Of a DNA stretch of 64,000 nucleotides, positions 4,015 to 62,004 are shown one piece after another (the first letter of the stretch is position 1; each line of letters opens with the position of its first letter). Source of the DNA: a bacterium (GTDB lineage: Bacteria; CSSED10-310); contig JBASEY010000029.1 of the NCBI GenBank assembly GCA_049652745.1, forward strand, positions 66,440 through 130,439, in the 5' to 3' direction. A program made the translations under genes and the position numbers. Under the pieces are notes generated by a model, which was not told the origin of the DNA, did not search any database, and worked only from the letters and a program-made list of their open reading frames with translations.

Positions 4015-4042
4015 GCGGATCATCGATTCGGATGGTAAGCTC

Positions 4043-11051: not shown

Positions 11052-11215
11052 TGGCTTCTCCTGAAACAAAGCCTTCCGGACTGACCGGATCGCGTGCTCG
11101 TTTATCTTTGAACGTCCTCTTTAAAGAATTTTCATGTTTTAACCTGCAGCACAAGTGCTCGATTATCGATTGGCAGTATCATATTAGTCTTAAAGAGATG
11201 AAAAAATCAAAATCA

Positions 11216-27613: not shown

Positions 27614-29927
27614 CAACTGTTCTCTGTTTTTCCAGATAGCCAAGAAGGCCAAGTCCAACAATCGTATTTTTAAACTTTTTAATATCGAGATCGGTTTCTG
27701 CAAAAACCGCCTTTAGGGCTGCGTTTTTCCGAAAACGGTTCAATATATTGATATCGACACCTTCCAAATGAGCATCGTGGGCTTTGGTTATCGCGTCCGG
27801 CGCCAAAGTAAAAGTAACACTCAGCGATGGCACTATCTTTTCAAAAACGTCCAGCTCTTCCAGATTTCGTATACCCCGCATAAACGCACGTTCGGTAATG
27901 ATGTCAAAAGCCACGTATTCTGAATCAGGCAATTCATTGGAATTAAATTTATAATCTCCAGCCGGCATATTACAAACATCCTGAATAATTAAATGTATTT
28001 GTTCTCTTACAGCATCTGTCAATGCATTTATGCTAACAATTTTTTGCTGGAATAAGCCGGTTCCTGACCGCATACCGGCTGAAGTATCCCATAAGTCAGA
28101 AGCTTTTATTCTCTGTTCTTCATTGATTAAACCTAGATCGAACAATATCTTGTCAATGCGAAACTCGGGTTTGTTTGTTTTAGCATACAAAAGATTTCCA
28201 TTTCGCCAGAAAAGCTTGGTCTGGCTGGCCGCATCAGTAAAAATCAAAGTGCCGGTTTTTTTAAATTTGATAGCCAAGACAATGACCAACACCGGGTGGG
28301 TCTCCCATGTATGACCTTCCGTTAAATCCTGTTCCATTAAGCCAAATTCATCAAACAAAGAAACGTTTCTTTTCTGAGATTCTTTTTCTAGAAGAGGATC
28401 GGTAACCGTTGGTCTTCTGTGTTTGGGAGTGATTGGCTGTTCGTTGAATTTTTGTAATTCACGATCCAATAACGTGGAGTTCTTTACCGAAGAAACCGGT
28501 TTGGCTTCTTTTGAAGAGGCAACAGGCTTTGTGGGAGGGCCGGCCTGTTTTATCACAGGGTGTAAGCCGGTATCTGTTTTGTCATTGCTTGTGAAATCAT
28601 TAATATGTTTTGGGGTCGTAATTGGATGAAGTCTGTCTGTTTGCTCCGGGATCTGGTCATCATCGACGACACTCAATTGAGAGCCATCTTGTTTTATCGA
28701 TTGATCATCGATTGGCTCCGGTAATTTGACAACAAAAATTTCCCCGAGGCTTAGTTCTTCCTGCTCAGTTGTTTTAAAAGCTTTAAAAGAAAGAAGTGTA
28801 TACATGAGTGAGGGTGCATAGGGTAAAATTGAGCCGGCTTGCCGCAACCAGTTGTTTAAGGTTATTCCATTTGCTGTCAGGGAAAGGAGCCCTGCTTCCA
28901 CAGGTATCAGATTGTAGACTTGTGACAACACTCCTTCGGAAGCATTTGGGACAAGCCGAAGCTCTTTTCCAATCAGGAGATGGCTGAAATCCGGTGCTGG
29001 AGTTAAATGCCGAAGCGAATTTAAAAGAAGATGGGCAGGGTGAATTCCACGGAAAGAAACCTGAAAAATTTCTTCCGGTTTTTCTTCTGGGGCCCAATCA
29101 AACTCACCTTTCGAATTTTGCAGCGCCGCTGATGAAATGGACTGAATATATTGAATGGCCAGACTGTTCAAGATTTCTTGTTGCAATCCTGATAATGTCT
29201 TGACTGCTTCGACGACTTTTATATCGGAAATGGTCTCTGGTAAAGCTTTGAAGTCACGTTTGGCTTCTCCGGAAAATGTCATGGTTTTCAAAATAAATCG
29301 ATAATAAGACTCTTCTTTCCTCGTCGAATGTGCTCCTCTGACAAAGCCATTTTCTATATAAAACGAGCGGATATGTTTGCCTTCGATCAAACGAAAAACC
29401 CCGCTTGCTTGTCTTAAATAAATCCAAGCAAAACAATAAGGTATAGGGTAGGATTCGATCAGACCATGAAACGGCAGACGTTCATCTCCATCAGCTTCAG
29501 ATAACGAAGGTGTCTTTTCGGGCACCAACCCTGGAGGAGGCTGTAACTCACGATAGAGATTGGTTTTTTTTAGGCGAATGTGAAGCTGCATCAACAACTC
29601 CGGCAAGACGAACGGCATCGATACAACATCGTCCGCTCCAGATTTCCAGGCATCCAATTTTTCTTTTGAATTCATTTTTCCGTAAATGACGATGATTGGA
29701 AAGCCGATAAATTTCGGTGTTTTTCTAATTTCCGACACATGTTCTACAGCAGTAGAATCCTCAAACTTGTCTCGAAACAAAACCATATCGAAATGTGTTT
29801 CGTTTAATTTGGACAAAGCATCAGATGCCTCATTTATCGCAACGACTTCAAACTTGACGTTCTTCAATGCCGCAGTAAGCTGGTTTTGAATTTTCTCGCT
29901 GGACTCAACCAATAATACTTTTATCAC
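27603..29927 (-). CDS. Response regulator receiver protein with a low-complexity linker and two DUF4388-like domains
   Basis: A REC domain (IKVLLVESSEK...FDMVLFRDKF...SGADDVVSMPF) comes first, followed by a P/S/T/K-rich linker. Two domains then match the DUF4388 pattern: FAWIYLRQASGVFRLIEGKHIRSFYIENGFVRGA and LVIVLAIKFKKTGTLIFTDAASQTKLFWRNGNLLYA. I prefer the GTG start at 29927 (GGAGGT Shine-Dalgarno 9 nt upstream), which gives MIKVLLVE. The ORF-track TTG at 30005 and the ATG at 29981 lack a Shine-Dalgarno. Confidence 0.65.
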   Translation of the reverse strand: MIKVLLVESSEKIQNQLTAALKNVKFEVVAINEASDALSKLNETHFDMVLFRDKFEDSTAVEHVSEIRKTPKFIGFPIIVIYGKMNSKEKLDAWKSGADDVVSMPFVLPELLMQLHIRLKKTNLYRELQPPPGLVPEKTPSLSEADGDERLPFHGLIESYPIPYCFAWIYLRQASGVFRLIEGKHIRSFYIENGFVRGAHSTRKEESYYRFILKTMTFSGEAKRDFKALPETISDIKVVEAVKTLSGLQQEILNSLAIQYIQSISSAALQNSKGEFDWAPEEKPEEIFQVSFRGIHPAHLLLNSLRHLTPAPDFSHLLIGKELRLVPNASEGVLSQVYNLIPVEAGLLSLTANGITLNNWLRQAGSILPYAPSLMYTLLSFKAFKTTEQEELSLGEIFVVKLPEPIDDQSIKQDGSQLSVVDDDQIPEQTDRLHPITTPKHINDFTSNDKTDTGLHPVIKQAGPPTKPVASSKEAKPVSSVKNSTLLDRELQKFNEQPITPKHRRPTVTDPLLEKESQKRNVSLFDEFGLMEQDLTEGHTWETHPVLVIVLAIKFKKTGTLIFTDAASQTKLFWRNGNLLYAKTNKPEFRIDKILFDLGLINEEQRIKASDLWDTSAGMRSGTGLFQQKIVSINALTDAVREQIHLIIQDVCNMPAGDYKFNSNELPDSEYVAFDIITERAFMRGIRNLEELDVFEKIVPSLSVTFTLAPDAITKAHDAHLEGVDINILNRFRKNAALKAVFAETDLDIKKFKNTIVGLGLLGYLEKQRTVDGF

Positions 29928-30016
29928 CGCACTTATAACCTCCAAAGATGGTTCAAAATTCCTTGCTGCTAAGCGCAACATAGACAAGTCTGACCAATTC
30001 TGCAACCAGTTTTCAA

Positions 30017-36604: not shown

Positions 36605-38908
36605 ATGATGGATCAGTCTCGAAAGCACGGGGCATCTGGAAATACTTCAGTCTCATCCTCTTTGAGAAATAGGATGCCGGACGATTTTACGCTTGATTTA
36701 TCTGAGAATGCTCGGGTGGTTCTTGAGCGCCGATATTTGCGAAAAGATGATGATGGACAAGTAGTTGAAACGCCGGTACAGATGTTCAGGCGTGTCGCAG
36801 CGAATATTGCGCTAGCTGAGAGGCGGTTTGTCGGCGAAGAAACTGCGAAAGAGATGGAAGAAAAGTTTTTTCGGGTGATGACATCGATGGAGTTTTTGCC
36901 GAATTCGCCGACATTGATGAATGCGGGGAGGGATCTTCAGCAGTTATCCGCTTGTTTTGTATTACCTGTTCAAGATTCAATCGAGAGCATTTTTAATACT
37001 GTTCGAGACACGGCTTTGATTCACAAATCCGGTGGTGGAACAGGTTTTGGGTTTTCTCGTGTTCGTCCGAAAGATGATCGGGTTCAAAGTACAAGCGGTG
37101 TGGCAAGCGGCCCGGTTACGTTCATGCAGGTATTCGATGCCGCAACGGAAGCGATCAAACAGGGTGGAACCCGACGAGGCGCGAACATGGCTATTTTGCG
37201 AGTTGATCATCCGGATATTGTCGAGTTCATAGGTTGTAAAAACGAGCAGGCGAAGCTGAATAATTTTAATATATCGGTCGCATTGACGGACACCTTTATG
37301 GAAGCTGTAAAAAATGGAAGCGAATACCCTCTGATCAATCCGCGAACCGGGCAGGTCCAAAAGCACGAGGACGCTCAGAAAATTTTCGATCTCATTGTTC
37401 AACAGGCGTGGAAAAACGGGGAACCAGGAATTGTTTTCATTGACAGAGTGAACGCTGATAATCCAACTCCACATATTGGAGAAATTGAGTCAACCAACCC
37501 ATGTGGAGAGCAGCCGCTGTTACCGTTTGAGTCGTGTAATCTCGGCTCCATCAACCTCGCGAAAATGTTTGTGCAAACCGACAATACCGTTTCAATTGAT
37601 TATAAAAGGCTGGACGAAACGATAAAAACCGCGATTCGCTTTTTAGATGACGTAATTGAGATGAATCGTTATCCCCTGGTTGCTATCCAGGAAAAAACCT
37701 TGGCCAATCGAAAAATCGGTTTGGGTGTGATGGGTTTTGCGGATTTATTGATCAAGATGGGTATTCCTTACAATTCGGATGCTGCCGTTCGGACGGGCGA
37801 GAAGCTCATGGAATATATCAACCTGCGTGCGATAGAATTTTCACGGGACTTGGCTGAAGAACGAGGCGCTTTTCCCAATTATCCGGGATCGATTTGGGAC
37901 AAATCTGATGAGCGTCCTATGCGTAATGCAACTGTGACGACGATTGCGCCTACGGGCACAATATCAATTATCGCCGGATGCTCAAGTGGAATTGAACCTT
38001 TGTTTGCTGTGGCATTTAAACGTAGAATTTTGGATGGCGATGAGCTCACGGAAGTCCATCCTATCTTGCTTCAAATGGCTAAAGACGGGGGATTTTATTC
38101 TCAGGAACTGATGAAGAAAATAGCGACTCAAGGATCTGTTCAGAATATTTCGGAAGTTCCTGCGGAATTAAGAAGGGTTTTCGTGACAGCTCACGATGTC
38201 ACACCGGATTGGCATGTTAAAATGCAGGCGGCATTTCAAAAACATACCCATAACGCCGTGTCGAAAACGATCAATTTTCCTTTTCACGCGTTAGCCGAAG
38301 ATGTGCGACAAGCTTTTGAGCTGGCTTATAAACTTGGATGCAAAGGTATTACGGTTTACCGTGATGGAAGCCGAGAAGCACAAGTGTTATCCACTGGGAA
38401 AACTGAGAGCCTGGCAGACAATCTGACTATGAGTTCAGGGGTCGGGGTTAAACCGCGTCCAAGACCCCTATGTGTCACCGGACGGACAATAGAAATGGAA
38501 ACGGGCTGTGGTAGCTTGTATGTGACAATTAATGAAGATGAAAAGGGTAACCCTTTCGAGGTTTTCGCACAAATAGGCAAGGCCGGCGGCTGTGTCGCCT
38601 CTCAAACACAATCTACAGCCCGCCTCTGTTCGTTGGCGCTCCGCTCCGGAATTGAACCCAAAAGCATTATTAAACAATTGATAGGAATCAGTTGCCACAA
38701 ACCCAGCGGGTACGGCTCAAAAAAAATCCTGTCCTGCTCCGATGCCATTGCAAAAGCTCTGAATTGGTATTTAGCGCTGGAGAAGAATCAAAAGACCGAG
38801 TTTCACATCGATCGAGAACGTGGTGCATGTCCTGATTGTGGAGGTGTTATCGAGCACATCAACGGATGTGAAACGTGTCGGAGTTGCGGTTATTCAGAAT
38901 GCGGGTGA
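36605..38908 (+). CDS. nrdJ: Class II (adenosylcobalamin-dependent) ribonucleotide reductase
   Basis: 767 aa. NPCGEQPL (thiyl-radical Cys loop), FESCNLGSINL and the C-terminal Zn-ribbon CPDCGG...CETCRSCG are present. Confidence 0.9.
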   Translation: MMDQSRKHGASGNTSVSSSLRNRMPDDFTLDLSENARVVLERRYLRKDDDGQVVETPVQMFRRVAANIALAERRFVGEETAKEMEEKFFRVMTSMEFLPNSPTLMNAGRDLQQLSACFVLPVQDSIESIFNTVRDTALIHKSGGGTGFGFSRVRPKDDRVQSTSGVASGPVTFMQVFDAATEAIKQGGTRRGANMAILRVDHPDIVEFIGCKNEQAKLNNFNISVALTDTFMEAVKNGSEYPLINPRTGQVQKHEDAQKIFDLIVQQAWKNGEPGIVFIDRVNADNPTPHIGEIESTNPCGEQPLLPFESCNLGSINLAKMFVQTDNTVSIDYKRLDETIKTAIRFLDDVIEMNRYPLVAIQEKTLANRKIGLGVMGFADLLIKMGIPYNSDAAVRTGEKLMEYINLRAIEFSRDLAEERGAFPNYPGSIWDKSDERPMRNATVTTIAPTGTISIIAGCSSGIEPLFAVAFKRRILDGDELTEVHPILLQMAKDGGFYSQELMKKIATQGSVQNISEVPAELRRVFVTAHDVTPDWHVKMQAAFQKHTHNAVSKTINFPFHALAEDVRQAFELAYKLGCKGITVYRDGSREAQVLSTGKTESLADNLTMSSGVGVKPRPRPLCVTGRTIEMETGCGSLYVTINEDEKGNPFEVFAQIGKAGGCVASQTQSTARLCSLALRSGIEPKSIIKQLIGISCHKPSGYGSKKILSCSDAIAKALNWYLALEKNQKTEFHIDRERGACPDCGGVIEHINGCETCRSCGYSECG

Positions 38909-40162: not shown

Positions 40163-41158
40163 TTAAGTAAAAGCTGGGTTGAATTGGTGGATATGTTGAA
40201 TCAATTGAGTGACGATATTCATGTATTCTCCATGGATTTTGCAGCCTGAAGCTTTACGGTGACCACCTCCACCGAATTTTTCCGCTACGGATGCAACATC
40301 CCAGTTATCGATTGCGCGAAGGCTGATTTTGAAATTCATAGGTTCCAATTCCCGCATGAAAATTGAAATTTGAACTCCGTCGATTGAAAGCGCGAGGTTA
40401 CTGAAACCTTCGAGCTCCCTGTCGATTCCAAGCTGGTTGGCGAAAAAGGCATAGGGCAGATGTGAAACAGCGATTTTTCCACCATCGAGGAGCTCGATGC
40501 TTTGAAGCACCTGAGCCAATGTTCTGACACGAAGAATATTGGTTTTATGGAAAAGCTGGTGGCTTGTATATTCTGGATTCGCACCGGAATCTATCAATCC
40601 GGCGGCAATTCTCAATGTGTTACCGGAAGTATTTGAAAATCGAAAGTTACCGGTGTCGAAAAGGATACCGGCATAAAGCGTATTAGCTAAATCCGGCGCT
40701 AATTCAATTGGCATAAAAGCAGAGAGTTGGGCGAGGATTTCGCATGTTGAAGAGGCGTGAACGTCGATGAGGTTCAACAAGGCGAAATTTTCATTTTTGG
40801 GATGGTGATCGATACAGATGATAGTTGGACACATTTGAACCCATTTGCCGGCATCGCCAAGGCGTTCAAGTGAAGGTGAATCCAATACAATGGCAACCTG
40901 TATCGAATCTGGGGGGAGATCCACGTGAGTTGACAAGATTTGTCCGAATCCCGGGAGAAAATCATACCGCGGATCAGGAAAAGGGTCAGCGATAACCGGC
41001 CAGACACGTTTACCCAGCTTGCGAAGCGTTTCCGACACATAACAGACAGCAGCTATCGCATCACCATCCGCTCGGATATGAGCCGTCACAATGAAGGTCT
41101 CATGGTACCTAAACGCATCGGCGATCTGTTTGAAAAGTTTTTTTTCTATTTTTGACAA
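40163..41158 (-). CDS. nrnA: DHH/DHHA1 phosphoesterase, NrnA-like nanoRNase / pAp phosphatase
   Basis: HIRADGDAIAAV and ICIDHH (DHH motif) are present, as is GGGHRKASG (DHHA1 GGGH). The start is TTG. Confidence 0.85.
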   Translation of the reverse strand: MSKIEKKLFKQIADAFRYHETFIVTAHIRADGDAIAAVCYVSETLRKLGKRVWPVIADPFPDPRYDFLPGFGQILSTHVDLPPDSIQVAIVLDSPSLERLGDAGKWVQMCPTIICIDHHPKNENFALLNLIDVHASSTCEILAQLSAFMPIELAPDLANTLYAGILFDTGNFRFSNTSGNTLRIAAGLIDSGANPEYTSHQLFHKTNILRVRTLAQVLQSIELLDGGKIAVSHLPYAFFANQLGIDRELEGFSNLALSIDGVQISIFMRELEPMNFKISLRAIDNWDVASVAEKFGGGGHRKASGCKIHGEYMNIVTQLIQHIHQFNPAFT

Positions 41159-41285
41159 AAGCCTTAATTATCCCTTCGTCTTTTCGGGCATAGTTCTGCT
41201 AGAACCCCTGTAAAAACCATACGACATAAAACCACGTTTGTAAAACAGGATGTTTTTTTTGAAACCGCAAGCTGTTCATAAGTAT

Positions 41286-41313
41286 TTGAATTGTTAAAAG
41301 AAAGTGGTAAAAT
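41286..41313 (+). promoter_or_regulatory. Candidate sigma70 promoter for the GGDEF-STAND gene
   Basis: TTGAAT, a 16-nt spacer, then TAAAAT, about 40 nt upstream of the TTG start. Confidence 0.35.
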
Positions 41314-41356
41314 AGCAAAAGTTGGGGAGCTGAAAAACCGAACGGAGACATTTTAG

Positions 41357-44300
41357 TTGAAAATATCGTTGAGAGACGCGCTGACCGGGCTGGCAAACCG
41401 GTTTTTGCTTGATGAAATCAAAAGTGATTTTACCAAACGTGAAACCGGCCAAACCTGGGTTTGCATCATGATAGATGTTGATCATTTTAAATTAGTAAAT
41501 GATCTGTACGGCCATCTTAATGGTGACCGGATTTTAGTTGAGATATCTGGGGCTCTTCAGAAAGTTTTTGAAAAAAAAGGATATACGCTTCGTTTTGGCG
41601 GTGATGAATTTTTAGTGATTCTAAAAGACAAACCGGTTCAAGAAGCCTTGAAGATGGTCGAGAGTCTAATGGATGATGTCCGAAAGCTGGATTTTTTTGC
41701 CAACCTAAGTCTTTCTCTGTCAGTTGGTTTGGCTGAATCACACTTCACTGATAACGATATTATGGTTGTCATAGACAGGGCTGATAAAGCGCTTTACGAT
41801 GCCAAAACAATGGGTAGGGGACGGAAGGTATTATTTTCGGAAAAACAGAATCTCGTGAAAACAGAAGCCATTCGTCTTGGTTACTTCGTCGGGCGCCAAA
41901 CGGAACTGCGCATGCTTCATCAGCTTCTAGAAGAAAGTGTTTCAACCGGACCACGTTTGGCATTGATTGAAGGTGACCCGGGTATTGGAAAAAGTCGGCT
42001 TGCATCGGAAGTGATCCAGTACGCTCATTTTCGCAATTGTGCGATAATGCATTCCGGATGTTTCCAATTTGGTGATATTGAGCCTTATACTTTCTTTTTG
42101 AAACCGATTAGAGAGTTTTTCAAGAGTCTTGTTCCAGGGGACATCCAGAGGATTAAACGCATGGTGGAACCTGTTCATCCGGCGACTGCCGAGCTCTTTT
42201 CCGAGTTGGAATTAAAAGCATCTCCCGATATGCAGCTTTTTGGTGAAGATAGAATAAAATTCCGAATGCTTGAAGACTTTATAAAAATCTTGTCCGCCAT
42301 TTCAAAATGGACTCCGGTTTTGTTCATTGTAGATGATATACACTGGATGACGGCTCCGGACATGGAATTATTCAAGTTTCTGGTACGCTCATCCGGAAAT
42401 AATCATATCATGTTCATGGTGACCATGCGGGACATGGAGGAATCATCTGGAGAAATTCGTAATCACCTTCATTCGCTGAATCGGACAATTCCGTTGTTAA
42501 AACTCAAGTTGGGCAATCTTGAGCGACAGGAGACATATAACTTGATCATGTTTGCCCTTAAAGACCCCAATATGCCATCGAAGTTTTTGGAAACTATCTA
42601 TCGACAAAGCGGAGGTAATCCATTTTTCCTTGAAGAACTGATCAATTCGATGATCCAAACCGGTGCAATATCGCGTAAGGCATCAGGTGATTGGACATAT
42701 TTTTTATCCAGAAATATCAAACTCCCAGAAAGCTTGGCCCAATTGATGGCTGATCGCCTTTATCCTCTAACTTCCAAGAGTCGAGATTACCTGCGGATTG
42801 CGGCATTGTCTTCCGGGAGTTTTTCCGTCGATATGATTGCTGCTGTAACAGGTGATTCTTTAGTCGACGTCATGGAAGGGCTTGAAGAACCGGTTCGTTT
42901 AAACTTGGTTCAATGCATCGTTGGAAAAAACAGGACTATTTACAGATTCGTTCATGACACGATTTGCTCATTTCTGCACCGGGAATTATCCGATGGGATG
43001 AAAAAAATCTATCACAAACGAATTGCCGAGTATCTTGAGGTTAGATACCGTTCTGAGGCTAACGAAGAGATAGTGATCGATATGGCTCATCATTATCAGG
43101 CTGGTGACGGCAAAGAAAAAGCTGCTTGGTCGGCGCTTCTGGCATCGCAGATTTTTGAAAAGCGGCAGGCTTATCGTGAAACGGCGCGATGGCTCGAAAC
43201 CTATTGCCAGAACAGCAAAATATCCGAACACAACAAAGATGAACATTTCAAAGCATCTTTGAAATTAGGCGTTCTGTACACTATGTTCGGCGATTTTGAA
43301 AATGCCGCTCACAATTTGGATTCGGCAGAAAAATTGGCTGTAAAAAGCGACGATATATCAACGGTAAAATGGAGACGAGGCCAGTTGTATCAGACGATGT
43401 GTATGTACAACGAAGCTCGGAAGTGTTACGATCAAGCTTTTGCTTTCGCTGTGTCCGCATTAAAGAAAATCGATGCTCTGAATTCACTGGCATTTCTTAA
43501 TTATGTGCTGGGGAATTTGAAAAATGCTCAGGCTATGATATGCCAAGCAGAAAGTCTTTTAGATAAACTCGAAACCGACCAAGGAACTCGAGAGTACTAC
43601 ATGGCGTCTCTTGCTATGTCCAGAGGAATAGTAGCCACGGCGATCATGCCTGGACCTGAAGCTATTGCTGAATACGAAAAAGCGCTGAACGTTTATATCA
43701 AATATGAAGATTTTTTGAAGCAAGCCATAATTTACAACAACCTGTCAGAAGTCTTTTCAAGAGCGGGTCAATACGAAAAAGCGTTGGAATCGCTGAAAAA
43801 AGCTGCAAAGATCAATAATCGATTAGGTGACGTCGTAAATGAAGCGATAGCATTGTTCAATACAGCGGTTTTGTATGTTGAGATTAACCAACTGGTTTTG
43901 GCGAAGGAATATTTTCAGCGATATAGTGATTATGATCTAGACATCAATGGCGAAATAGGCCAGGCATTCAATTACCAGGGCTTAGGAATGCTGTATGAAG
44001 AGGAAGGCGATTTCGAAAGGGCTGAGATTTCCTTTGGCAAAGCCGTAGACATGTTCGAAAAATTAGGCGTTGAAAAAGAGGCCTTATCTTGCCGCCTCGA
44101 GTTGGCTCATCTTATGATTCGAAACAATAAAATTGAGAAAGCAGAGGAAATTTTTTTGGCAGGATTGAAAAAAACAGACGACATTCCAGAAAAAGGCCTT
44201 GGAAACCAAATACTTTTTATTAAAGGATTGTTGAAATTTAAAAAGAGCGCTCCAAGTGACAGAGATGCTTTGAATGAAGCGGAGGTGTTGATTGAAAAGT

Positions 44301-44518
44301 CCCTGGAGGGACGATACACATATATATCTGTGATTATGCGAAGTTTTTATTACTTGATACAGATCAAACGCCTAAAGGAGGAATATGACCAGGCAGACGA
44401 GCTTCTTCAGAATGCCAGACAAGAATTGGAGAAAAGCCTGAGTTACATTGAAAAAGCTCATATTCAAGAGAGTATTCGAAACAAAGGCTATATCAAAAAG
44501 ATATTCGAAGGCATATGA
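41357..44518 (+). CDS. GGDEF diguanylate cyclase fused to a STAND-type P-loop NTPase and a TPR array
   Basis: The N-terminal GGDEF domain has DALTGLANR, DVDHFKLVND, RFGGDEFLV and RADK (I-site-like RxxD). A P-loop GDPGIGKSRL and a Walker B-like LFIVDDIH follow. The C-terminal 500 aa are repeated TPR-like helices. The start is TTG with a GGAGA Shine-Dalgarno. Confidence 0.8.
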   Translation: MKISLRDALTGLANRFLLDEIKSDFTKRETGQTWVCIMIDVDHFKLVNDLYGHLNGDRILVEISGALQKVFEKKGYTLRFGGDEFLVILKDKPVQEALKMVESLMDDVRKLDFFANLSLSLSVGLAESHFTDNDIMVVIDRADKALYDAKTMGRGRKVLFSEKQNLVKTEAIRLGYFVGRQTELRMLHQLLEESVSTGPRLALIEGDPGIGKSRLASEVIQYAHFRNCAIMHSGCFQFGDIEPYTFFLKPIREFFKSLVPGDIQRIKRMVEPVHPATAELFSELELKASPDMQLFGEDRIKFRMLEDFIKILSAISKWTPVLFIVDDIHWMTAPDMELFKFLVRSSGNNHIMFMVTMRDMEESSGEIRNHLHSLNRTIPLLKLKLGNLERQETYNLIMFALKDPNMPSKFLETIYRQSGGNPFFLEELINSMIQTGAISRKASGDWTYFLSRNIKLPESLAQLMADRLYPLTSKSRDYLRIAALSSGSFSVDMIAAVTGDSLVDVMEGLEEPVRLNLVQCIVGKNRTIYRFVHDTICSFLHRELSDGMKKIYHKRIAEYLEVRYRSEANEEIVIDMAHHYQAGDGKEKAAWSALLASQIFEKRQAYRETARWLETYCQNSKISEHNKDEHFKASLKLGVLYTMFGDFENAAHNLDSAEKLAVKSDDISTVKWRRGQLYQTMCMYNEARKCYDQAFAFAVSALKKIDALNSLAFLNYVLGNLKNAQAMICQAESLLDKLETDQGTREYYMASLAMSRGIVATAIMPGPEAIAEYEKALNVYIKYEDFLKQAIIYNNLSEVFSRAGQYEKALESLKKAAKINNRLGDVVNEAIALFNTAVLYVEINQLVLAKEYFQRYSDYDLDINGEIGQAFNYQGLGMLYEEEGDFERAEISFGKAVDMFEKLGVEKEALSCRLELAHLMIRNNKIEKAEEIFLAGLKKTDDIPEKGLGNQILFIKGLLKFKKSAPSDRDALNEAEVLIEKSLEGRYTYISVIMRSFYYLIQIKRLKEEYDQADELLQNARQELEKSLSYIEKAHIQESIRNKGYIKKIFEGI

Positions 44519-44715
44519 TTTATTCGATATAAGCAGCCCTTTTCAGTTCGCGGTACAGTCCATTGAAATAACCACGCAGACGATCAGTCGGGTCTTGAAC
44601 GCTGCTATACACGTGCCAATTTAATCTTTACATTTGAAGAGTTTTTTTATATTCTCCTTCCCGGATGTTTTTTCTTCCTGATGTATTCGTTGAGCAATTC
44701 TGCGAGGACTCAATA

Positions 44716-45090
44716 ATGATTAATCTTGTCAATTCCATGAGCGTCAAACCTGTGAAAATGCTTGAAGGCGTGACCATGCGACTGGTGATCGGCCCGGATC
44801 AAGGGGCGCCCCATTTCAACCTTCGAATTTTTGAGGTTCAGCCTGAAGCTTCGACCCCATTCCACTCGCATTGGTGGGAGCATGAGGTGTTCATTCTAGC
44901 CGGTAACGGTGTGGTCAGGAACCAGACCGAAGAAAAATCGATCAAGCCTGGAGATGCCATATTGGTTCCCGGCGGAGAAATTCATCAATTTATAAATACC
45001 GGGACAGAAATACTCCGATTTATCTGTTTGGTGCCGCAGGAGTGGCTTAAATCCGTTTCCGATCAAAAAAAACTTGAATCAGATGGTTGA
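44716..45090 (+). CDS. Cupin-2 domain protein
   Basis: The HSHWWEHEVFIL...PGGEIHQF two-His cupin motifs are present. ATG at 44716 follows a GAGGA Shine-Dalgarno. Confidence 0.7.
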   Translation: MINLVNSMSVKPVKMLEGVTMRLVIGPDQGAPHFNLRIFEVQPEASTPFHSHWWEHEVFILAGNGVVRNQTEEKSIKPGDAILVPGGEIHQFINTGTEILRFICLVPQEWLKSVSDQKKLESDG

Positions 45091-45148
45091 ACGGTCTGAA
45101 TGGCGGGCCGTATAAAATATAACTTGAACAAATAAAGGAGATATTGCC

Positions 45149-47482
45149 ATGTCACAAGTGGACACGTTGTTGAACAAATCCAGGGTTAATTTCAAACACT
45201 GGGAGAAAATCAAGGATGTTATTGATCAATTGATCGACTTGATGTTGAACTATCGCCAGAGTGGTCATCCGGGCGGCTCGCGATCGAAAGTGCATGCTTT
45301 GGTCGCTACCGGGTTGTCGGGCGCAATGCGTTGGGATATTCGCCATCCGGAAAAACGTTTCTCAGACCGCTTTATCTTGAGTGCAGGCCACACGGTTCCA
45401 ATGATCTATAGTTTTTTGTGCGTACTTGGGGACGCCATGCGTACGCGTTATGAGAAAACAGGTGACGAACGCTTTAAAATCAATCCTGAAAAAATTGTTT
45501 TATGGGAAGATATCATTACATTCCGACGACGTGATGGACTGCCAGGGCATGCAGAAATGTCCGGTAAAACTTTGTTTTTAAAAGCAAACACCGGCCCATC
45601 CGGCCATGGTATTCCGTTTGCCGTAGGCGAAGCTTTCGCTCTGAAGTATGCCGGTGCTGAAGAGGTCAAAGTATTTGCGTTCGAAGGCGAGGGTGGATTG
45701 ACTCCAGGAGCCTCCCATGAATCGAAAAATACTGCATACGGCCTGGGTCTGAGCAACTTGGTGTTCTATATTGACTGGAATAACTTCGGAATCGACCATC
45801 AGCCTATCGATACTGTCATGTATGGAACGCCTGATGACTGGTTTAAATCTCATGGCTGGAAAGTTTCCGGCAGTCTTGAGGGAGAAAACTGGGAAGAAGT
45901 CGCTCGGGTGATCCTTGAAGCCTCAAGGGGCGACAATCCCGATAAACGGCCCTGCATTGCTTGGACCAAAAACAAGAAAGGCAGAGGTTATCATAAATTT
46001 GACAACGTTTCTCATGGAGCGCCGCATAAAACCAACTCGGAGCTTTTCTGGCAATGCAGAAAGGACTTTGCCGATAAATACGGCGTGAAATGGGATAGTT
46101 TCGGAGCTCCGGAAGGCGCGAAGGATGAGTTGGGACGGCAACTTAACGCAAACCTCAACATAGCGCTCGATGTTATTCGAAAAGACGAAGAGTGTTTGAA
46201 TTATATTACAGATCGATTGGTGGAATTGGGTGACAGCGTACCGGAGACCATCAAAACGTTCAAGCTGGGCGGCCCCAATCCGTTTAAAGACCCGGAAATG
46301 ACGGATTATACGAAATATCCCGAAAGCTTATGGGTCAAGCCTGGAGCCAATGTCCCGAACCGTTCCGCCCTGGGAGCTTGGGGTTCTTGGGTCAATTCAT
46401 GGTCAAGAAAAAAATATGGTCGCCCGGTTTTTATCGCTTGTAGCGCCGATTTGGCTGGATCTACCAATATTGAAGGCTTTGGATTGGGCTTTGACGGAAC
46501 ACCTGGTTGGGGATGGTATGACCGTAACAAAAACTTGGGCGGGACCCTTTTACCTCAAGAGATTACTGAATTTGCCAATTCGGGGCTTTTATGCGGTGCC
46601 GCCGGAGTGAACTTCTCCGATAAACCTTTTGAAGAATGGGATGGATACATGGGAGCCTGCAGCACTTATGGTTCTTTTATGTATCTTAAATACGGCCTGA
46701 TCCGCCTTTTCAGCCAAATGGCTCAGGATCCTGACATAAAGGTGGGAAAGGTGATGTGGGTTGCCGGGCACAGTGGACCCGAAACCGCTGACGACAGCCG
46801 AACACACTTTGGGATATTCGCACCGGGAATCACTCAGCTTTTCCCGGAAGGCCATGTAATCGATCTACACCCTTGGGAATACAACGAAGTCCCCGTTGTC
46901 ATCGCCGCCGCTTTGCGTGCCGATGCTCCATTGATTGCACTGCATCTGACGCGGCCTCCAATCGTGGTCCCGGATCGAAAAAAATTGAATATTCCTTGCC
47001 ATTTCGAAGCTGCTAAAGGCGCTTATGTGATGCGGGAATATCGTTCAGATCAACCACAAATGGGATGTATTTTTGTGCAAGGAACCTCTGTCACTGCAAA
47101 TACCATCGAGCTATTCGAAACGCTCGACCGCGAAAAATTGAATATCAAAATTGTGGCGGCAATCAGCCCTCAGCTTTTCGCACTTCAGCCCATGGCTTAT
47201 CGGGAACAGGTAATAACTCCTGCTGATAAAATGGATTCTACGATCATTTGTAATCGCGCCAAACGTGTGACTTCGGATTGGATGTTCAACCCTCTCGCGG
47301 CAGAATATGCCATGACTTCGGACTGGGATGACAGATGGAGAACCGGTGGCACTTTGGATGATGTCATCGATGAAGCGCATTTGACTCCAGAATGGTTGTT
47401 GAAAGGCATAGAACGGTTTGTGAAAGACCGACCGACAAGGTTGAAAAAAATCAAATCGATGTTGGATTCCTGTCGACAGTAA
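45149..47482 (+). CDS. Divergent transketolase-family ThDP enzyme
   Basis: 777 aa. TK signatures include SGHPGGS, LSAGHTVPMIYS, TGPSGHGI, FEGEGGLTPGASHE followed by a long spacer and FYIDWNNFGID, and HGAPH. In the last two the usual GDG and DDN appear as GEG and DWNN. The Shine-Dalgarno is AAGGAG. Confidence 0.65.
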   Translation: MSQVDTLLNKSRVNFKHWEKIKDVIDQLIDLMLNYRQSGHPGGSRSKVHALVATGLSGAMRWDIRHPEKRFSDRFILSAGHTVPMIYSFLCVLGDAMRTRYEKTGDERFKINPEKIVLWEDIITFRRRDGLPGHAEMSGKTLFLKANTGPSGHGIPFAVGEAFALKYAGAEEVKVFAFEGEGGLTPGASHESKNTAYGLGLSNLVFYIDWNNFGIDHQPIDTVMYGTPDDWFKSHGWKVSGSLEGENWEEVARVILEASRGDNPDKRPCIAWTKNKKGRGYHKFDNVSHGAPHKTNSELFWQCRKDFADKYGVKWDSFGAPEGAKDELGRQLNANLNIALDVIRKDEECLNYITDRLVELGDSVPETIKTFKLGGPNPFKDPEMTDYTKYPESLWVKPGANVPNRSALGAWGSWVNSWSRKKYGRPVFIACSADLAGSTNIEGFGLGFDGTPGWGWYDRNKNLGGTLLPQEITEFANSGLLCGAAGVNFSDKPFEEWDGYMGACSTYGSFMYLKYGLIRLFSQMAQDPDIKVGKVMWVAGHSGPETADDSRTHFGIFAPGITQLFPEGHVIDLHPWEYNEVPVVIAAALRADAPLIALHLTRPPIVVPDRKKLNIPCHFEAAKGAYVMREYRSDQPQMGCIFVQGTSVTANTIELFETLDREKLNIKIVAAISPQLFALQPMAYREQVITPADKMDSTIICNRAKRVTSDWMFNPLAAEYAMTSDWDDRWRTGGTLDDVIDEAHLTPEWLLKGIERFVKDRPTRLKKIKSMLDSCRQ

Positions 47483-47488
47483 CGAGAT

Positions 47489-48847
47489 TTGATCACTGAA
47501 CAATCTCCTGTTGTTTGGCTGATCCGGCCTTGGATAGAGGACTTCTCGGCATTTGATCATTTTGATCAGCCGGTGGGTCTTCTATCCCTTGCTGCTTGGC
47601 TGAGACAAAACGGCTGTAGAGTCTATTATATTGATGCGCTATCAGGGAATAAACCACCGGAAAACAGCCCTGGCGAAACAGCGGCTGAGAAAGTTTCGCT
47701 GAAACTAAGGAAATATCCTTGCCATCAAATCGAAAAACCAATTGTCTTCAGATGTATACCTAGGTATTACAAACATTTTGGCACGTCATTGGAGACTCTT
47801 AAAAAGGAGTTGGAAAGCCTTCCTGTCCCCCAGGTCATTCTGATTACAACCGGTATGACCTATTGGTACCAAGCTGTTCAGAGTTTTGTGCAGGTTTTAC
47901 AAGCTCTCTATCCAGCTTCTCCGATAGCGATCGGCGGAATTTATGCCGGAATCGTTCCCGAACATGCTCGAGCATGTCTACAGCGAACCACGGTTTTTCC
48001 TGGGCAGGCAGGACAACAGTTTTTTTCCTGGATGAGCAAAATATTGGGATTCAATATTCATCCACCGACAGACCAAGCTACAATCTTGCCGGCATGGGAC
48101 CTTGTTTCCAATCGATCATATATCATCTATACGACTAGCCGGGGGTGTCTCAGGCGCTGCTCTTATTGTGCGGCGTCGCTTTTAAGGCCTGTGTGGAAAG
48201 CGCGGCCGCCGAATGTTATCCGCAATGAAATCGAAGCTCTTATTACACAATATCAAGTTTCCGATATCGCTCTTTATGACGATGATTTAGGATGCTCGAC
48301 ACTTGAGGGGCAGCAGCATTTAACCGGCTTGCTTCAGATGTTGGTCTCGCACGAATTTCCAATAAATTGGCACCTTCCCAATGCTCTAGGCGTCGACGCC
48401 GTCACACCCGAAGTGGCTAGGCTTATGTACCAAGCAGGATTTGAACAGCCGCGATTAAGCCTGCACCATTTAGATAAACATCTCGATGAAAAAGGCCTGG
48501 ACACCAGAGCACGCAAGGCTTTTGAAACCGCCGCAAAGCGTCTTGTTGAAGCCGGTTACGAGCAAAGTCGTCTTTCCACCTATCTTATAGCCGGACTGCC
48601 CGGGCAAAAACTGTCCTGGTTGAAAAAAGCCGCTGACCAGTTGCTCGATGTTGGTGTCAAGCCCTATTTGGCACAATTCAGCCCGATACCGGGAACTCCC
48701 GCAGGTGAAAAAAGGTTGCAGCAGTTGACGGAAAAATTTAAGACCGATGATTTGTTGTTGACGAACAAGATTTTTTCAGTTTATGCGCATGATGGATGGT
48801 CTGAGGAAGATTACCAGATGCTTGTTCTTGAACTGAAAAATAGATAG
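47489..48847 (+). CDS. B12-binding-domain radical SAM protein (class B)
   Basis: The N-terminus has a Rossmann-like B12-binding domain (VVWLIRP...LSLAAWLRQNGCRVYYID). The radical-SAM motif is SRGCLRRCSYCAAS. The TTG start is 6 nt after the TK-like stop. Confidence 0.75.
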   Translation: MITEQSPVVWLIRPWIEDFSAFDHFDQPVGLLSLAAWLRQNGCRVYYIDALSGNKPPENSPGETAAEKVSLKLRKYPCHQIEKPIVFRCIPRYYKHFGTSLETLKKELESLPVPQVILITTGMTYWYQAVQSFVQVLQALYPASPIAIGGIYAGIVPEHARACLQRTTVFPGQAGQQFFSWMSKILGFNIHPPTDQATILPAWDLVSNRSYIIYTTSRGCLRRCSYCAASLLRPVWKARPPNVIRNEIEALITQYQVSDIALYDDDLGCSTLEGQQHLTGLLQMLVSHEFPINWHLPNALGVDAVTPEVARLMYQAGFEQPRLSLHHLDKHLDEKGLDTRARKAFETAAKRLVEAGYEQSRLSTYLIAGLPGQKLSWLKKAADQLLDVGVKPYLAQFSPIPGTPAGEKRLQQLTEKFKTDDLLLTNKIFSVYAHDGWSEEDYQMLVLELKNR

Positions 48848-48916
48848 TTCCACCGTTTTTGTGGTTCGTCACGGTTCGACGAAATGTGGTAAGATGTCTT
48901 TGATGGAGGTGTAAGA

Positions 48917-49792
48917 ATGGGAAAATCTTGTTTTTATACAATATTATTGAGATGCTCTTTCCTGCTGATAGGGTTGTCGGTCATGTTTTCGGTTGCTTCG
49001 GCTGACGATGAGGCGCCGGGCCGGGTCTGGCACGTTTGTATGGAGTGCGCCGAACGGGATTTCCCATCGATCGGTGATGCGCTTCGCCAGGCTAAACCCA
49101 AGGACACGATTCTTGTATACTGGGAACCTGCTTTTCCGTACTATATGGAGCATTTGGTTATCGATAAACCTGTCAGGATCATTTCAAATGCGGCTGCAGC
49201 AGACATTACATCCTATGATTATTATCCGGTTATTGCGTCCGTATCGAATGAAATTGTGCATATCACGGTTCCTGGAGTCGAACTGATAGGGTTTAATCTA
49301 ATCTATCTTCAAAAACCGGCCGATTGTGAAGATGAGGCTTTATGCTATGCAGAGTCCATTGGATTGCGTCTGGATGCCCCGGCTCTGATTCGTCAGGTTG
49401 CCATCACCAACTGCTCGACAGGTATACTAACGGCATATACGAAACCATATTTAGGTCAGGCAAGTACGATACAGCTTTGTCGGATTGGTCTACCACCAGA
49501 TCATGGATTGACCCAAACAGGTTTTATGCAAACAAAAAACCACTATGGGATCGTATTGCTGGGATGTCGCCAAGAAGGACAATATCTTGGAGTTGGACGG
49601 GATAAAATCTCTGATTGCCAAATAATGCGAAACGCCCAGTACGGGTTGGTTTACACGACTGCCAATGAGCCTGAAATGCTTGGAAATCTGATAGAACTCA
49701 ATGGGAAAGGGCCTTTTAGAATAGTCAATCCCAAACTAGGCGAAAATCAGAAACTGATCTGGTTCGACAAGTTGAAAGGATCTGAAAAATAA
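48917..49792 (+). CDS. Secreted hypothetical protein, possible parallel beta-helix
   Basis: Signal peptide MGKSCFYTILLRCSFLLIGLSVMFSVASA. Repetitive short beta-strand segments with NCSTG-type turns are visible. No catalytic motif is recognised. Confidence 0.4.
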   Translation: MGKSCFYTILLRCSFLLIGLSVMFSVASADDEAPGRVWHVCMECAERDFPSIGDALRQAKPKDTILVYWEPAFPYYMEHLVIDKPVRIISNAAAADITSYDYYPVIASVSNEIVHITVPGVELIGFNLIYLQKPADCEDEALCYAESIGLRLDAPALIRQVAITNCSTGILTAYTKPYLGQASTIQLCRIGLPPDHGLTQTGFMQTKNHYGIVLLGCRQEGQYLGVGRDKISDCQIMRNAQYGLVYTTANEPEMLGNLIELNGKGPFRIVNPKLGENQKLIWFDKLKGSEK

Positions 49793-53955: not shown

Positions 53956-55710
53956 ATGAATCCTTTGGGCCCAAGGGAATTACAGCGTGATCGATTGTTG
54001 TTTCTGTTGAAAACGTTGGAAGACATGGGACGGACACTGACGGGAGGTGAATCGTTTGACAAAGCTGCCCGTTTTCTTCTGCGAACACTTTTAGAATCGA
54101 TCGGGATTTCTGAAGGCGCGATTTTTACATTTGTATCGAGGCGAAGTGTTTTGAAGCTGAAGGAAAAAACTCAGAATCTGGATTGTGATTTGTCTGAGAT
54201 GAAAATTTCCGGTGAACAGATCAGGTATCTGGCTGAAAATCCGGTTCCTCATAAGACAGACCAGCTTCCAGAAGAGCTTGCTAAAAAATTTATGGAAATG
54301 ATCGAGTTCTGGAAAACAAAGGATATTCAGGTAATGATTCCTTTGGCGGTAAAAGGGGATCTTTTGGGGATGGTGTGTTTAGGCCATCGACAGGCAGATC
54401 AGCCATACAGCAAAATCGATCTGGAAATACTTGCTCTTTTGACCCAGCATATCAGTTTATATTTTCATGGCCAAAAAAGCCTGGAACAGCTTCAACAAGC
54501 AAACTATGAACTCAAACGAAAAATTCTGGAAATGGAGCAATTGTATGAAGTTGCTCTCGCAGTCACCAGGTTACGAAATCCGGAAGAGTTGCTGGGTGAA
54601 ATCCTGTCAAGAGCCACTAAAATCCTGGATGCACGATATGGCGCAGTATGGCTGATGACTAATCAGTCTTATTATTTAGCAGGGGCATTTGGTTTTAGTG
54701 ATGTCGATTCGATTCCGGAAATTATGGTGGATTTAAGTAAGCTGAGTCCTAAAACGTTTCGATTTGATCCCGATTCTGCCGGGAGCCTGTTAGCGAGCAT
54801 GAGTATTCGAAACACAACTATCGGGGTATTGAGCGTCGCTGGTAAAGAAAGCCCTTTGGGTGGTTTTATGGATTTTTCAGAATCCGATTATCAACTTCTG
54901 AATACTTTTGCAAATCAGGCAGCCGTAGCCTTGGAAAATGCACGGCTGTATGTGGAAGCTGTAGCCAAAGAGAGAATGGATCAAGAAATTAGGGTAGCTG
55001 CTGAAATTCAGGAATCTATTCTGCCGGACGCTTTTCCAGAGACTCCGGATTTGGATATCTCAGCGATGACATTGCCTTGTCAGATTGTCGGGGGCGATTT
55101 TTTTGATTTTTTCGAAATGGCGGATGGAAAACCAGCTATGATAATTGCCGATGTTTCCGGTAAAGGTGTTCCTGCTGCAATGATGGTATCGACCGTTCAT
55201 GGCGCCTTACATGCTTTTACTGAGTTTGTCGACAATCTTGACGAACTGGCATCGAGAATAAATTCTCTTCTTGTGAAAACGACACCTGATAATAAATTTG
55301 TTACAGCGACCTTTCTGACTTGGAATTCAATGTCAAAAGAAATTACCACACTGTCAGCCGGCCATGAACCTATCGTCCTGATCAAAGCCGATGGAACGAT
55401 GACACATCTGTCTCATGGGGGTATGGTTCTGGGATTGTTCGCCGGTATTGAATTTGAGACTCATACACTGGTATTGAATAAAGGTGACTGTCTCTGCCTA
55501 CATACTGACGGCATTATCGATCAACGCAATAGTCTTGGCGAGCGATTTGGGATTGCTCGTTTTGAAGAATTATTGCGTGAGTCTGTGACGGCAAATAGAA
55601 AACAATCGGCTGCGATGATAGTGCAGAATGTTTTTCGCAGCCTAGCCAAATTTGCCAAAGATGAACCCGCAACAGATGATCAAACATTGATAATTGTCAT
55701 TCGTCGGTAA
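53956..55710 (+). CDS. GAF-domain sensor fused to a PP2C-type Ser/Thr phosphatase (RsbU/SpoIIE family)
   Basis: Tandem GAF-like regions come first. The C-terminal PPM domain has QIVGGDFFDF and IADVSGKGVPAAMM, followed downstream by GHEP and LHTDG. Confidence 0.85.
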   Translation: MNPLGPRELQRDRLLFLLKTLEDMGRTLTGGESFDKAARFLLRTLLESIGISEGAIFTFVSRRSVLKLKEKTQNLDCDLSEMKISGEQIRYLAENPVPHKTDQLPEELAKKFMEMIEFWKTKDIQVMIPLAVKGDLLGMVCLGHRQADQPYSKIDLEILALLTQHISLYFHGQKSLEQLQQANYELKRKILEMEQLYEVALAVTRLRNPEELLGEILSRATKILDARYGAVWLMTNQSYYLAGAFGFSDVDSIPEIMVDLSKLSPKTFRFDPDSAGSLLASMSIRNTTIGVLSVAGKESPLGGFMDFSESDYQLLNTFANQAAVALENARLYVEAVAKERMDQEIRVAAEIQESILPDAFPETPDLDISAMTLPCQIVGGDFFDFFEMADGKPAMIIADVSGKGVPAAMMVSTVHGALHAFTEFVDNLDELASRINSLLVKTTPDNKFVTATFLTWNSMSKEITTLSAGHEPIVLIKADGTMTHLSHGGMVLGLFAGIEFETHTLVLNKGDCLCLHTDGIIDQRNSLGERFGIARFEELLRESVTANRKQSAAMIVQNVFRSLAKFAKDEPATDDQTLIIVIRR

Positions 55711-61674: not shown

Positions 61675-62004
61675 TGATGAATCGTCACCCCCTCCTCGAA
61701 CAGATTGACTGCAAAATTTGTACCCTGAATTATTTTCGTTGAAAGGGTCAAAATCGGTGGAAATCCTCTTTTGAAGCGTGAAAAATGTGCAATTTTGATC
61801 GGGATGTGCATTTTTTTCTGGCAAGATATAAATAGGATGTCGATTGTTCAATAAGGACATAAATTTCCATCCTCCGGAGGATCATGCAGAAGAGGTAGCA
61901 TTGGTAAAGTAAAATAAATACTTGATTATTTTGCTTAAGAAGATAGAATATAACTGCTTTTCAGAGAGGTTCCATTAGCCTTTGGAGAAAAGCGGGAGGT
62001 TCGT

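Follow-up and report, generated by a model that had tools for sequence, protein, structure and literature searches.

Cyclic di-GMP (c-di-GMP) is made only when two GTP-loaded GGDEF domains meet, and an RxxD I-site is typical of active GGDEF domains, without being obligatory. The STAND proteins (ATPases of signal transduction that have numerous domains), such as MalT of Escherichia coli, join an effector to a nucleotide-binding oligomerisation domain (NOD), an arm, and a sensor of tetratricopeptide repeats (TPR). Here, we describe a gene that brings the two together, found in a 64,000-nucleotide stretch from a bacterium of the lineage CSSED10-310 (GenBank assembly GCA_049652745.1, contig JBASEY010000029.1, positions 66,440 to 130,439 of the forward strand), which is called the window below and to which all coordinates refer. 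The encoded protein of 1053 amino acids (aa) would, judging by its sequence, be a cytoplasmic STAND-class signal-transduction ATPase of the MalT/AAA_16 type, whose effector is an N-terminal diguanylate cyclase, apparently competent for catalysis. A DHH/DHHA1 gene lies divergent to it, and an earlier note on this DNA had proposed that both form a local module for the production and clearance of c-di-GMP. We consider it highly probable that the gene encodes a STAND-TPR chassis with an active cyclase, acting as a chromosomal regulator, and that its position beside the nrnA-like gene is incidental.

A search of the literature on GGDEF domains in combination with STAND, NTPase, AAA_16, MalT, or TPR found no description of a GGDEF-STAND-TPR protein, within a coverage that did not include the founding STAND survey (Leipe et al. 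2004), which may list GGDEF fusions. What AAA_16 retrieved was a catalogue number and proteins of no relevance. The closest mention was of vWA-MoxR conflict systems, in which GGDEF domains occur rarely (PMC7159879).

The GGDEF domain and the STAND-TPR chassis

The Pfam GGDEF model matched residues 5-155 of the protein, corresponding to positions 2-160 of the 161 in the profile, and the two motifs that had been read from the sequence, DxLTGLxNR and GGDEF, were both located (D7-ALTGLANR15 and G81-GDEF85). In a family alignment of 23 sequences, reaching down to 26% identity, residues D40, D42, K45, N48, H53, D57, R79, G81-G82-D83-E84, K150, and R154 were invariant in all 23, and the catalytic residues map to D327, N335, D344, R366, the GGEEF motif, K442, and R446 in the numbering of PleD. 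As all the catalytic residues are invariant across these relatives, the A-site is not degenerate and the diguanylate cyclase is probably active, which is in agreement with the earlier description of an apparently intact domain. Residue D57 is the guanine-specifying aspartate, equivalent to D344 of PleD. Hypr-type GGDEF enzymes, which make cGAMP, have a serine at this position, and the invariance of D57 would thus favour c-di-GMP over a mixed dinucleotide of the Hypr type. In addition, the Protein Data Bank (PDB) matches of the domain included SiaD, DosC, and DgcZ, with SiaD as the best domain match in both NCBIfam and PDB, and the predicted fold was superposed on solved GGDEF domains by Foldseek with root-mean-square deviations of 1.6-2.9 Å.

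However, the RxxD-like I-site that had also been claimed was not found in the window protein at the canonical position, five residues before the GGDEF motif, where the alignment reads EKKG. The relatives with 82% and 65% identity read KNKG and QKAG there, respectively, and it is this window clade alone that has lost RxxD: relatives with 52% identity or less have RxxD or KxxD at this position, with one exception (P0046, GDDD).

The gene begins with a TTG codon, with an in-frame TAG directly upstream and a GGAG sequence at 41344-41347, nine bases upstream. Both the position of the start codon (TTG in the window and in the 82% relative, GTG in the 65% relative) and the GGAG are conserved, from which it follows that the GGDEF domain truly begins at about residue 5, with no N-terminal extension.

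Behind the GGDEF domain, the Pfam AAA_16 model matched residues 177-352 (E 1.9e-19), whereas on the C-terminal half the matches were to TPR_12 (8.6e-23) and TPR_MalT (9.2e-17), with the AfsR model also matching the sensor. The annotation with Pfam GGDEF, AAA_16, and TPR models, which had been suggested as a check of the domain order, therefore returned matches for all three, including the predicted stretch of about 500 aa of TPR repeats, and NCBIfam recovered these domains as well. Within the nucleotide-binding domain (NBD), residues G206, G209, G211, K212, and a sensor-1-like R358 are invariant and D326 is near-invariant, so that the P-loop (GDPGIGKSRL) and the hydrophobic stretch ending in two aspartates (hhhhDD) correspond to Walker A and Walker B motifs of a STAND-like NTPase, as had been supposed. 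In the helical domain (HD), a GGNP motif (418-422) contains the invariant G419 and N421 and the near-invariant P422. The winged-helix domain (WHD) has an invariant F531 and a near-invariant H533, a pair that is also invariant or near-invariant in relatives with kinase and cyclase effectors, and H533 would be expected to contact ADP. Finally, the TPR sensor shows a conserved set of residues, D785, N794, N795, N835, and N844, which are candidates for a ligand groove. The Walker B motif ends in DD in the window clade and in DN in most of the Fermentibacteria/Aegiribacteria clade; taken together with the I-site pattern, this suggests that feedback and ATP hydrolysis may differ from clade to clade.

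The AlphaFold model of the protein had a mean predicted local distance difference test score (pLDDT) of 85.8 and a predicted template-modelling score (pTM) of 0.60, with pLDDT mostly above 85 in the TPR region. It was laid out as the GGDEF domain (1-160), a tether, NBD (177-385), HD (386-437), WHD (438-545), and a series of helical hairpins (546-1053), the helices of HD being placed at 390-435 and WHD showing two beta-hairpins. The top PDB match in Foldseek was PH0952 (6MFV), a STAND-TPR structure (E 2e-16 over 737 columns), followed by Apaf-1 and MalT (8BOB). The protein consequently presents a P-loop NBD, a NOD composed of NBD, HD, and WHD, an arm with a repeat sensor, and an effector at one end, the N-terminal GGDEF domain, and its middle part is a bona fide STAND core.

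Family distribution and exchange of effectors

Full-length homologues were detected with E = 0 and identities from 98 to 26%, and the NCBI record of the identical protein is named "diguanylate cyclase". About 80 clusters at 90% identity share the same full-length architecture, most of them with lengths of 1045-1091 aa, and the named hosts are Candidatus Fermentibacteria/Aegiribacteria, candidate division CSSED10-310, Hydrothermota/Hydrothermia, and metagenome-assembled genomes of Gemmatimonadaceae. All the domains diverge in parallel across the family, which argues for orthology over the whole length. In a scan of a genome collection with generic GGDEF patterns, about 10 of the 80 returned loci belonged to the family; the neighbourhoods described below were obtained from exact homologue look-ups.

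In order to place the chassis, the NOD region (residues 160-620) was searched against 1.84 billion representatives, which yielded 37,970 hits at E <=1e-10, revealing a very large chassis. An N-terminal GGDEF domain, starting at residues 2-28, was present in 27 of the best 150 NOD matches and dominated the top ranks. The 43 closest NOD relatives without GGDEF (900-1300 aa) comprised proteins with Pkinase (25), Guanylate_cyc (7), LuxR/GerE (4), and BTAD (1) effectors. Moreover, residues 177-965 aligned with a Guanylate_cyc-AAA_16-TPR protein from just past its cyclase domain, at 25% identity over 844 columns. The analogy with the class III cyclase-AAA-TPR layout drawn in the earlier note is therefore correct, because the NOD-TPR part aligns with that of such a protein and the nearest NOD relatives carry other effectors, and from its sequence the window protein is best described as a version of the widespread effector-NOD-TPR chassis in which the effector has been swapped. 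The alternative wording offered in the same note, in which a STAND-type sensor gives out a nucleotide signal, is the reading that the domain evidence fits best.

A Pkinase-AAA_16-TPR paralogue was also observed less than 5 kb from the GGDEF-STAND gene in two distant loci (L088, 10465-13488; L093, 14114-15093), so that those genomes carry several effector variants of one STAND chassis.

The DHH/DHHA1 neighbour and the surrounding window

The positions of the gene, of its parts, and of the features next to it are collected in Table 1.

Table 1. Features of the GGDEF-STAND-TPR gene and of its divergent neighbour in the window.
Feature	Coordinates	Strand	Basis
DHH/DHHA1 NrnA-like dinucleotide/nanoRNA phosphodiesterase gene, 331 aa	40163..41158	-	Pfam, PDB relatives, NCBI record
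Promoter-like site of DHH gene, TTTACA-17-TATGGT	41216..41244	-	Scan; inside the best-conserved block of the spacer
Promoter-like site of GGDEF gene, TTGAAT-16-TAAAAT with upstream TG	41286..41313	+	Sigma-70-like scan; weak
GGDEF-STAND(NOD)-TPR gene, 1053 aa, TTG start	41357..44518	+	Open reading frame, Pfam, full-length homologues
GGDEF domain, residues 1-160, extreme N-terminus	41357..41836	+	Pfam (E 2.3e-33), PDB matches, Foldseek, invariant catalytic residues
I-site-equivalent EKKG (E72-K-K-G75)	41570-41581	+	Alignment
GGDEF motif (G81-GDEF85)	41597-41611	+	Sequence
Flexible linker, residues 161-176	41837..41884	+	pLDDT <50 at 163-169; 161-170 block averages 44
P-loop nucleotide-binding domain of NOD, residues 177-385	41885..42511	+	AAA_16 match, invariant residues, strand/helix pattern of the model
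Walker A (G206-DPGIGKS213)	41972-41995	+	Sequence and alignment
Walker B (VLFIVDD, ends D326-D327)	42317-42337	+	Sequence and alignment
Helical domain (residues 386-437) and winged-helix domain (residues 438-545)	42512..42991	+	Secondary structure of the model, invariant residues, Foldseek
Arm and TPR sensor, residues 546-1053, all helical hairpins	42992..44515	+	TPR_12/TPR_MalT, model, conservation

The protein encoded on the opposite strand matched the Pfam models DHH (5.7e-14) and DHHA1 (2.6e-7), contains the motifs ADGD, IDHHPKN, FDTGNF, and GGGGHRKASG, that is, both the DHH and the GGGH motifs, and fits the stand-alone DHH plus DHHA1 layout (about 310-340 aa). Its best solved relatives were TM1595 of Thermotoga maritima (8e-40), then Rv2837c and NrnA, with E-values from 8e-40 to 1e-19. 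Its length is close to those of TM1595, NrnA, and Rv2837c (CnpB), and it has their two-domain layout with both motifs; however, its score against NF053633, the NCBIfam equivalog of NrnA (a bifunctional oligoribonuclease and pAp phosphatase), was 100.4 bits, below the cut-off of 350, and its substrate range is a prediction. The NCBI record is nevertheless named NrnA. The assignment of this gene as nrnA thus stood as to its two domains, its position, and its database name, and did not as to the equivalog model, so that from its sequence the protein is NrnA-like and not a certified NrnA. As for its substrates, TM1595 hydrolyses various linear dinucleotides, pGpG included, and PggH of Vibrio is a dedicated pGpG-specific DHH/DHHA1 enzyme (PMC8861645), and NrnA-type DHH/DHHA1 enzymes degrade pGpG (PMC6256023), which agrees with what had been said of NrnA and makes the module reasonable in its biochemical premise. 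The neighbour is most likely the general dinucleotide/nanoRNA phosphodiesterase of the cell, placed there by lineage synteny.

The divergent arrangement at a distance of about 200 bp was confirmed from the open reading frames (ORFs), with a spacer of 198 bp. A promoter-like site was found exactly where the earlier note had placed candidate -35/-10 boxes for the GGDEF gene (41286-41313); however, it is weak evidence, because sigma-70-like sites numbered 13 in 4 kb as against 7.5 +/- 2.4 in shuffles, less than a twofold excess, and only its extended -10 is partly conserved in the relatives. On the minus strand, the site TTTACA-17-TATGGT coincides with the conserved block of the spacer, CCATACGACATAAAAC....TTTGTAAAAC (window 41213-41250), which is kept in the 82% and 65% relatives, its -10 element reading TATGAT in the latter. 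This block is probably, as far as the sequence can tell, the promoter of the DHH gene and not a shared regulatory element.

The linkage between both genes was analysed in three ways, through the Pfam lists of the neighbours, by tblastn with the DHH protein of the window, and with a hidden Markov model of four DHH orthologues run against six-frame ORFs. A DHH gene within 6 kb of the GGDEF-STAND gene was found only in the relatives with 82, 65, 52, and 50% identity (L081-L084, L091). At 82% and 65% identity it directly adjoins the GGDEF-STAND gene, within the collinear order NAD-binding/DHODB, DPBB, class II ribonucleotide reductase, arylsulfotransferase-like, DHH, GGDEF-STAND, cupin, transketolase-like, and radical SAM, the divergent boundary falling between DHH and GGDEF-STAND. 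Wherever the DHH gene is kept, in relatives with at least 50% identity, all the flanking genes are syntenic as well, forming a 15-kb block. The pair is interrupted by a Cyt-b5/DUF2231 gene in the relatives with 52% and 50% identity, so that no shared divergent promoter region is kept. None of the 15 more distant distinct family loci (L001-L009, L085/086, L088/089, L092, L093) had a DHH gene within 6 kb by any of the three methods, and the neighbours at 43, 41, 38, 36, 34, and 32% identity were different ones, including SLT/LysM, PNP_UDP_1, YidC, a histidine kinase with a response regulator, and small proteins without assignment. The conservation of the nrnA adjacency in relatives, set beforehand as the point on which the module would be judged, is therefore lost below 50% identity. 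As the adjacency is kept only where the whole block is syntenic and is absent from the 15 distant loci, it is, by this comparison of sequences, inherited gene order, a signalling gene beside a housekeeping gene, and not a dedicated module.

In some of those distant loci, a PNP_UDP_1 gene (nucleoside phosphorylase family) was observed within 2.2 kb of the GGDEF-STAND gene (L085 at 43%, L086/L087 at 36%, and L092 at 41% identity), directly adjacent in two of the three relatives and with radical SAM genes nearby. This proximity may again be lineage synteny, for instance of futalosine-pathway genes.

The rest of the window was screened as well. A Pfam search covering nearly all ORFs of at least 150 aa in the 64 kb detected no EAL, HD-GYP, or PilZ domains, which leaves no nearby source of pGpG or reader of c-di-GMP among the scanned ORFs, and an Rfam scan of the whole window at gathering thresholds gave no match, hence no annotated c-di-GMP riboswitch. 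The other genes are ordinary chromosomal housekeeping genes, and no mobile-element or defence-island genes were among them; the GGDEF-STAND gene is a vertically inherited chromosomal regulator within a housekeeping block. With PADLOC, no defence-system model was matched, and the only hits were to a Cas10 palm (E 1.8e-5), explained by the shared palm fold, and to a generic TPR; a defence-system identity was consequently rejected.

Other observations concern genes along the window. Downstream of the GGDEF-STAND gene, four genes in a row (44665-49792) encode a 141-aa cupin, a 777-aa transketolase-like protein (its TIGR00232 score of 104 bits lies below the cut-off of 682), a B12-binding radical SAM protein of 452 aa, and a 291-aa protein without Pfam match, a cluster kept in this place down to 52% identity (L081, L083, L084). 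The class II ribonucleotide reductase gene (plus strand) and the arylsulfotransferase-like gene (minus strand) overlap tail to tail by 50 bp (38859-38908), as they do in L081 and L083. Three further signalling-type ORFs were noted: an 800-aa REC plus DUF4388 protein (27603-30005, minus strand), a GAF-GAF-SpoIIE (PP2C) phosphatase (53956-55710, plus strand), and a REC-HisKA ORF with no ATPase domain within it (60931-61860, minus strand). A 509-aa ORF with two Thy1 (ThyX) stretches (9540-11069, minus strand) resembles a flavin-dependent thymidylate synthase that has been duplicated or fused. Finally, the ORFs of a papain-family peptidase (1978-4014, 678 aa) and of a lipoyl-synthase-like radical SAM protein (3755-4912) share about 260 bp, read in different frames, and the start of the latter probably lies downstream of the mechanical ORF call.

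Proposed mechanism, alternatives, and comparison with known systems

A mechanism can be outlined by homology with MalT, PH0952, and Apaf-1, with the activation scheme of STAND proteins as a template (PMC6468293). At rest, the protein would be a monomer with ADP clamped in the closed NBD-HD-WHD core, shut by the arm and the TPR sensor. Binding of a ligand or of a partner protein to the sensor would release the autoinhibition, upon which the NOD would open, ADP would be swapped for ATP, and the cores would multimerise. The multimer would in this way gather the N-terminal GGDEF domains, each on a flexible tether of about 15 residues, and c-di-GMP synthesis would be switched on. In the window protein and in the relatives with 82% and 65% identity, the off-switch would be ATP hydrolysis (the DD of Walker B being intact) or loss of the signal and not product inhibition, which is not expected in this clade because the I-site has been lost. 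As nothing precedes the GGDEF domain, an N-terminal helical stalk cannot govern it in the usual way.

We give this best overall explanation, which blends the identity of the protein with the induced-proximity mechanism, a probability of about 0.65; for the mechanism by itself, which is proposed by analogy, the odds are about even. Several points speak against it. Oligomerisation, dependence on ATP, and the existence of an inducer are all extended by analogy across the family, most characterised cyclases are governed through an N-terminal helical stalk, a feature that the window protein lacks, and we know of no precedent of control from the C-terminal side among the characterised cyclases. In addition, the DN of Walker B in the Fermentibacteria clade, in place of DD, may mean that ATP hydrolysis is not universal in the cycle, and with a pTM of 0.60, the placement of the GGDEF domain relative to the NOD in the model is unreliable. 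A more elaborate version can be put forward tentatively, with somewhat less than even chances: an apoptosome-like c-di-GMP switch, in which a ligand of the TPR sensor would trigger an ATP-dependent multimeric hub and an all-or-none firing of the GGDEF domains, without product feedback in the window clade, where the I-site is lost, and which would serve several uncultured lineages (Fermentibacteria/Aegiribacteria, CSSED10-310, Hydrothermota, Gemmatimonadaceae) as a conserved core regulator.

Other explanations fit the data less well. In the first, the GGDEF-STAND gene would form with its divergent nrnA-like neighbour a local module for c-di-GMP production and clearance, co-regulated from a shared divergent promoter region and with NrnA removing pGpG. 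In its favour are the divergence of both genes, the 198-bp spacer with its back-to-back promoter-like sites, the adjacency kept in the 82% and 65% relatives, the activity on pGpG of NrnA-type enzymes (PMC6256023), and the existence of the pGpG-specific PggH in Vibrio (PMC8861645). However, the adjacency exists only within the syntenic 15-kb block, the two genes have the Cyt-b5/DUF2231 gene between them in the 52% and 50% relatives, the 15 distant family loci have no DHH gene within 6 kb, the scanned window ORFs include no EAL or HD-GYP protein (nor PilZ), and the DHH protein resembles the broad-specificity TM1595/NrnA enzymes that serve general RNA turnover. The module proposed in the earlier note thus fails beyond synteny, and we regard it as very unlikely. 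Hardly better are the prospects of a GGDEF domain that does not act as a diguanylate cyclase, being instead a receptor of GTP or c-di-GMP that modulates the STAND module, or a maker of another dinucleotide (Hypr-type cGAMP). Many GGDEF domains are indeed degenerate receptors, and an N-terminal GGDEF domain without a dimerising stalk is unusual, but none of the catalytic residues varies across the family, the receptor-type RxxD is the one element absent from the window protein, and D57 is invariant, whereas Hypr enzymes have a serine there; we take this option to be a shade less likely than the module.

The least probable of the alternatives, to which we give very little weight, is an anti-phage or conflict sensor of the STAND class, similar to Avs, whose TPR part would recognise an invader protein and which would use c-di-GMP as an alarm. 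Defence systems commonly contain STAND NTPases whose effectors have been swapped, GGDEF is on rare occasions a nucleotide-signal generator in conflict systems (PMC7159879), and PADLOC returned the weak Cas10-palm hit (E 1.8e-5), which reflects only the shared palm fold. Against this, no defence-system model was matched, the gene sits among housekeeping genes, synteny at the locus holds stably down to 50% identity, and no linked c-di-GMP-activated toxin was found; moreover, the uniform lengths (most 1045-1091 aa) and the parallel divergence of the domains argue for vertical descent and not for diversifying immune receptors.

A cyclase joined to a STAND-TPR chassis does not amount to a new type of system: every one of its domains has been seen before, as has their overall arrangement, automated annotation already names the protein "diguanylate cyclase", and the GGDEF-STAND-TPR family is uncharacterised but unsurprising to a specialist. 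If the proposed mechanism were true, it would represent an undescribed form of c-di-GMP control, in which the STAND part, lying C-terminal to the GGDEF domain, would multimerise in dependence on ATP and activate synthesis by induced proximity, and the protein would be the first diguanylate cyclase governed by NOD oligomerisation on that side, with no N-terminal stalk. It would also extend to the c-di-GMP network a NOD-TPR chassis with many effectors (kinase, cyclic nucleotide monophosphate (cNMP) cyclase, DNA-binding domain), and would open a first way into the signalling of uncultured lineages about which little is known (Fermentibacteria/Aegiribacteria, CSSED10-310, Hydrothermota).

Among the known systems, the proteins that also combine AAA_16 with GGDEF and are also named "diguanylate cyclase" are the Pkinase-AAA_16-GAF-GGDEF proteins of about 1700 aa from Massilia, Undibacterium, and Actimicrobium (P0092, P0100, P0103). 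However, these have an N-terminal kinase, the GGDEF domain at the C-terminus after GAF, and no TPR sensor, and they covered 15-40% of the query. The canonical cyclases PleD, WspR, DgcZ, DosC, and SiaD share with the window protein the GGDEF fold and a complete active site, and all of them need two dimerised GGDEF domains; they differ in having N-terminal sensor or dimerisation domains with a helical stalk and, in most cases, an RxxD I-site, whereas in the window protein, nothing stands before the GGDEF domain, all the regulatory domains are C-terminal, and the I-site has been lost in its clade. With MalT of E. coli, PH0952 of Pyrococcus horikoshii, and AfsR, it shares the NBD-HD-WHD-arm-TPR core. 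In these proteins, the effectors bind DNA and oligomerisation recruits or positions RNA polymerase, in contrast to the window protein, whose effector is an enzyme that requires dimerisation.

The Ser/Thr kinase-AAA_16-TPR proteins of the Mycobacterium tuberculosis PknK type represent the commonest architecture, with 25 of the 43 nearest NOD relatives lacking GGDEF, and their effector is likewise N-terminal, but it is a kinase, whose output is phosphorylation rather than a second messenger. The same order of a palm-fold cyclising effector, NOD, and TPR is found in the class III adenylyl/guanylyl cyclase-AAA_16-TPR proteins, which may or may not have a LuxR domain at the C-terminus (M. tuberculosis Rv0386/Rv1358/Rv2488c type; P0097, P0085, P0096), the regulation of which at full length is, to our knowledge, uncharacterised. 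Their homologous NOD-TPR part, together with the Guanylate_cyc effector in 7 of those 43 relatives, makes them the type to which the layout of the window protein corresponds; they differ from it in their effector, a cNMP cyclase (PF00211) that is also dimeric and is not a GGDEF domain, and the window protein has no LuxR domain.

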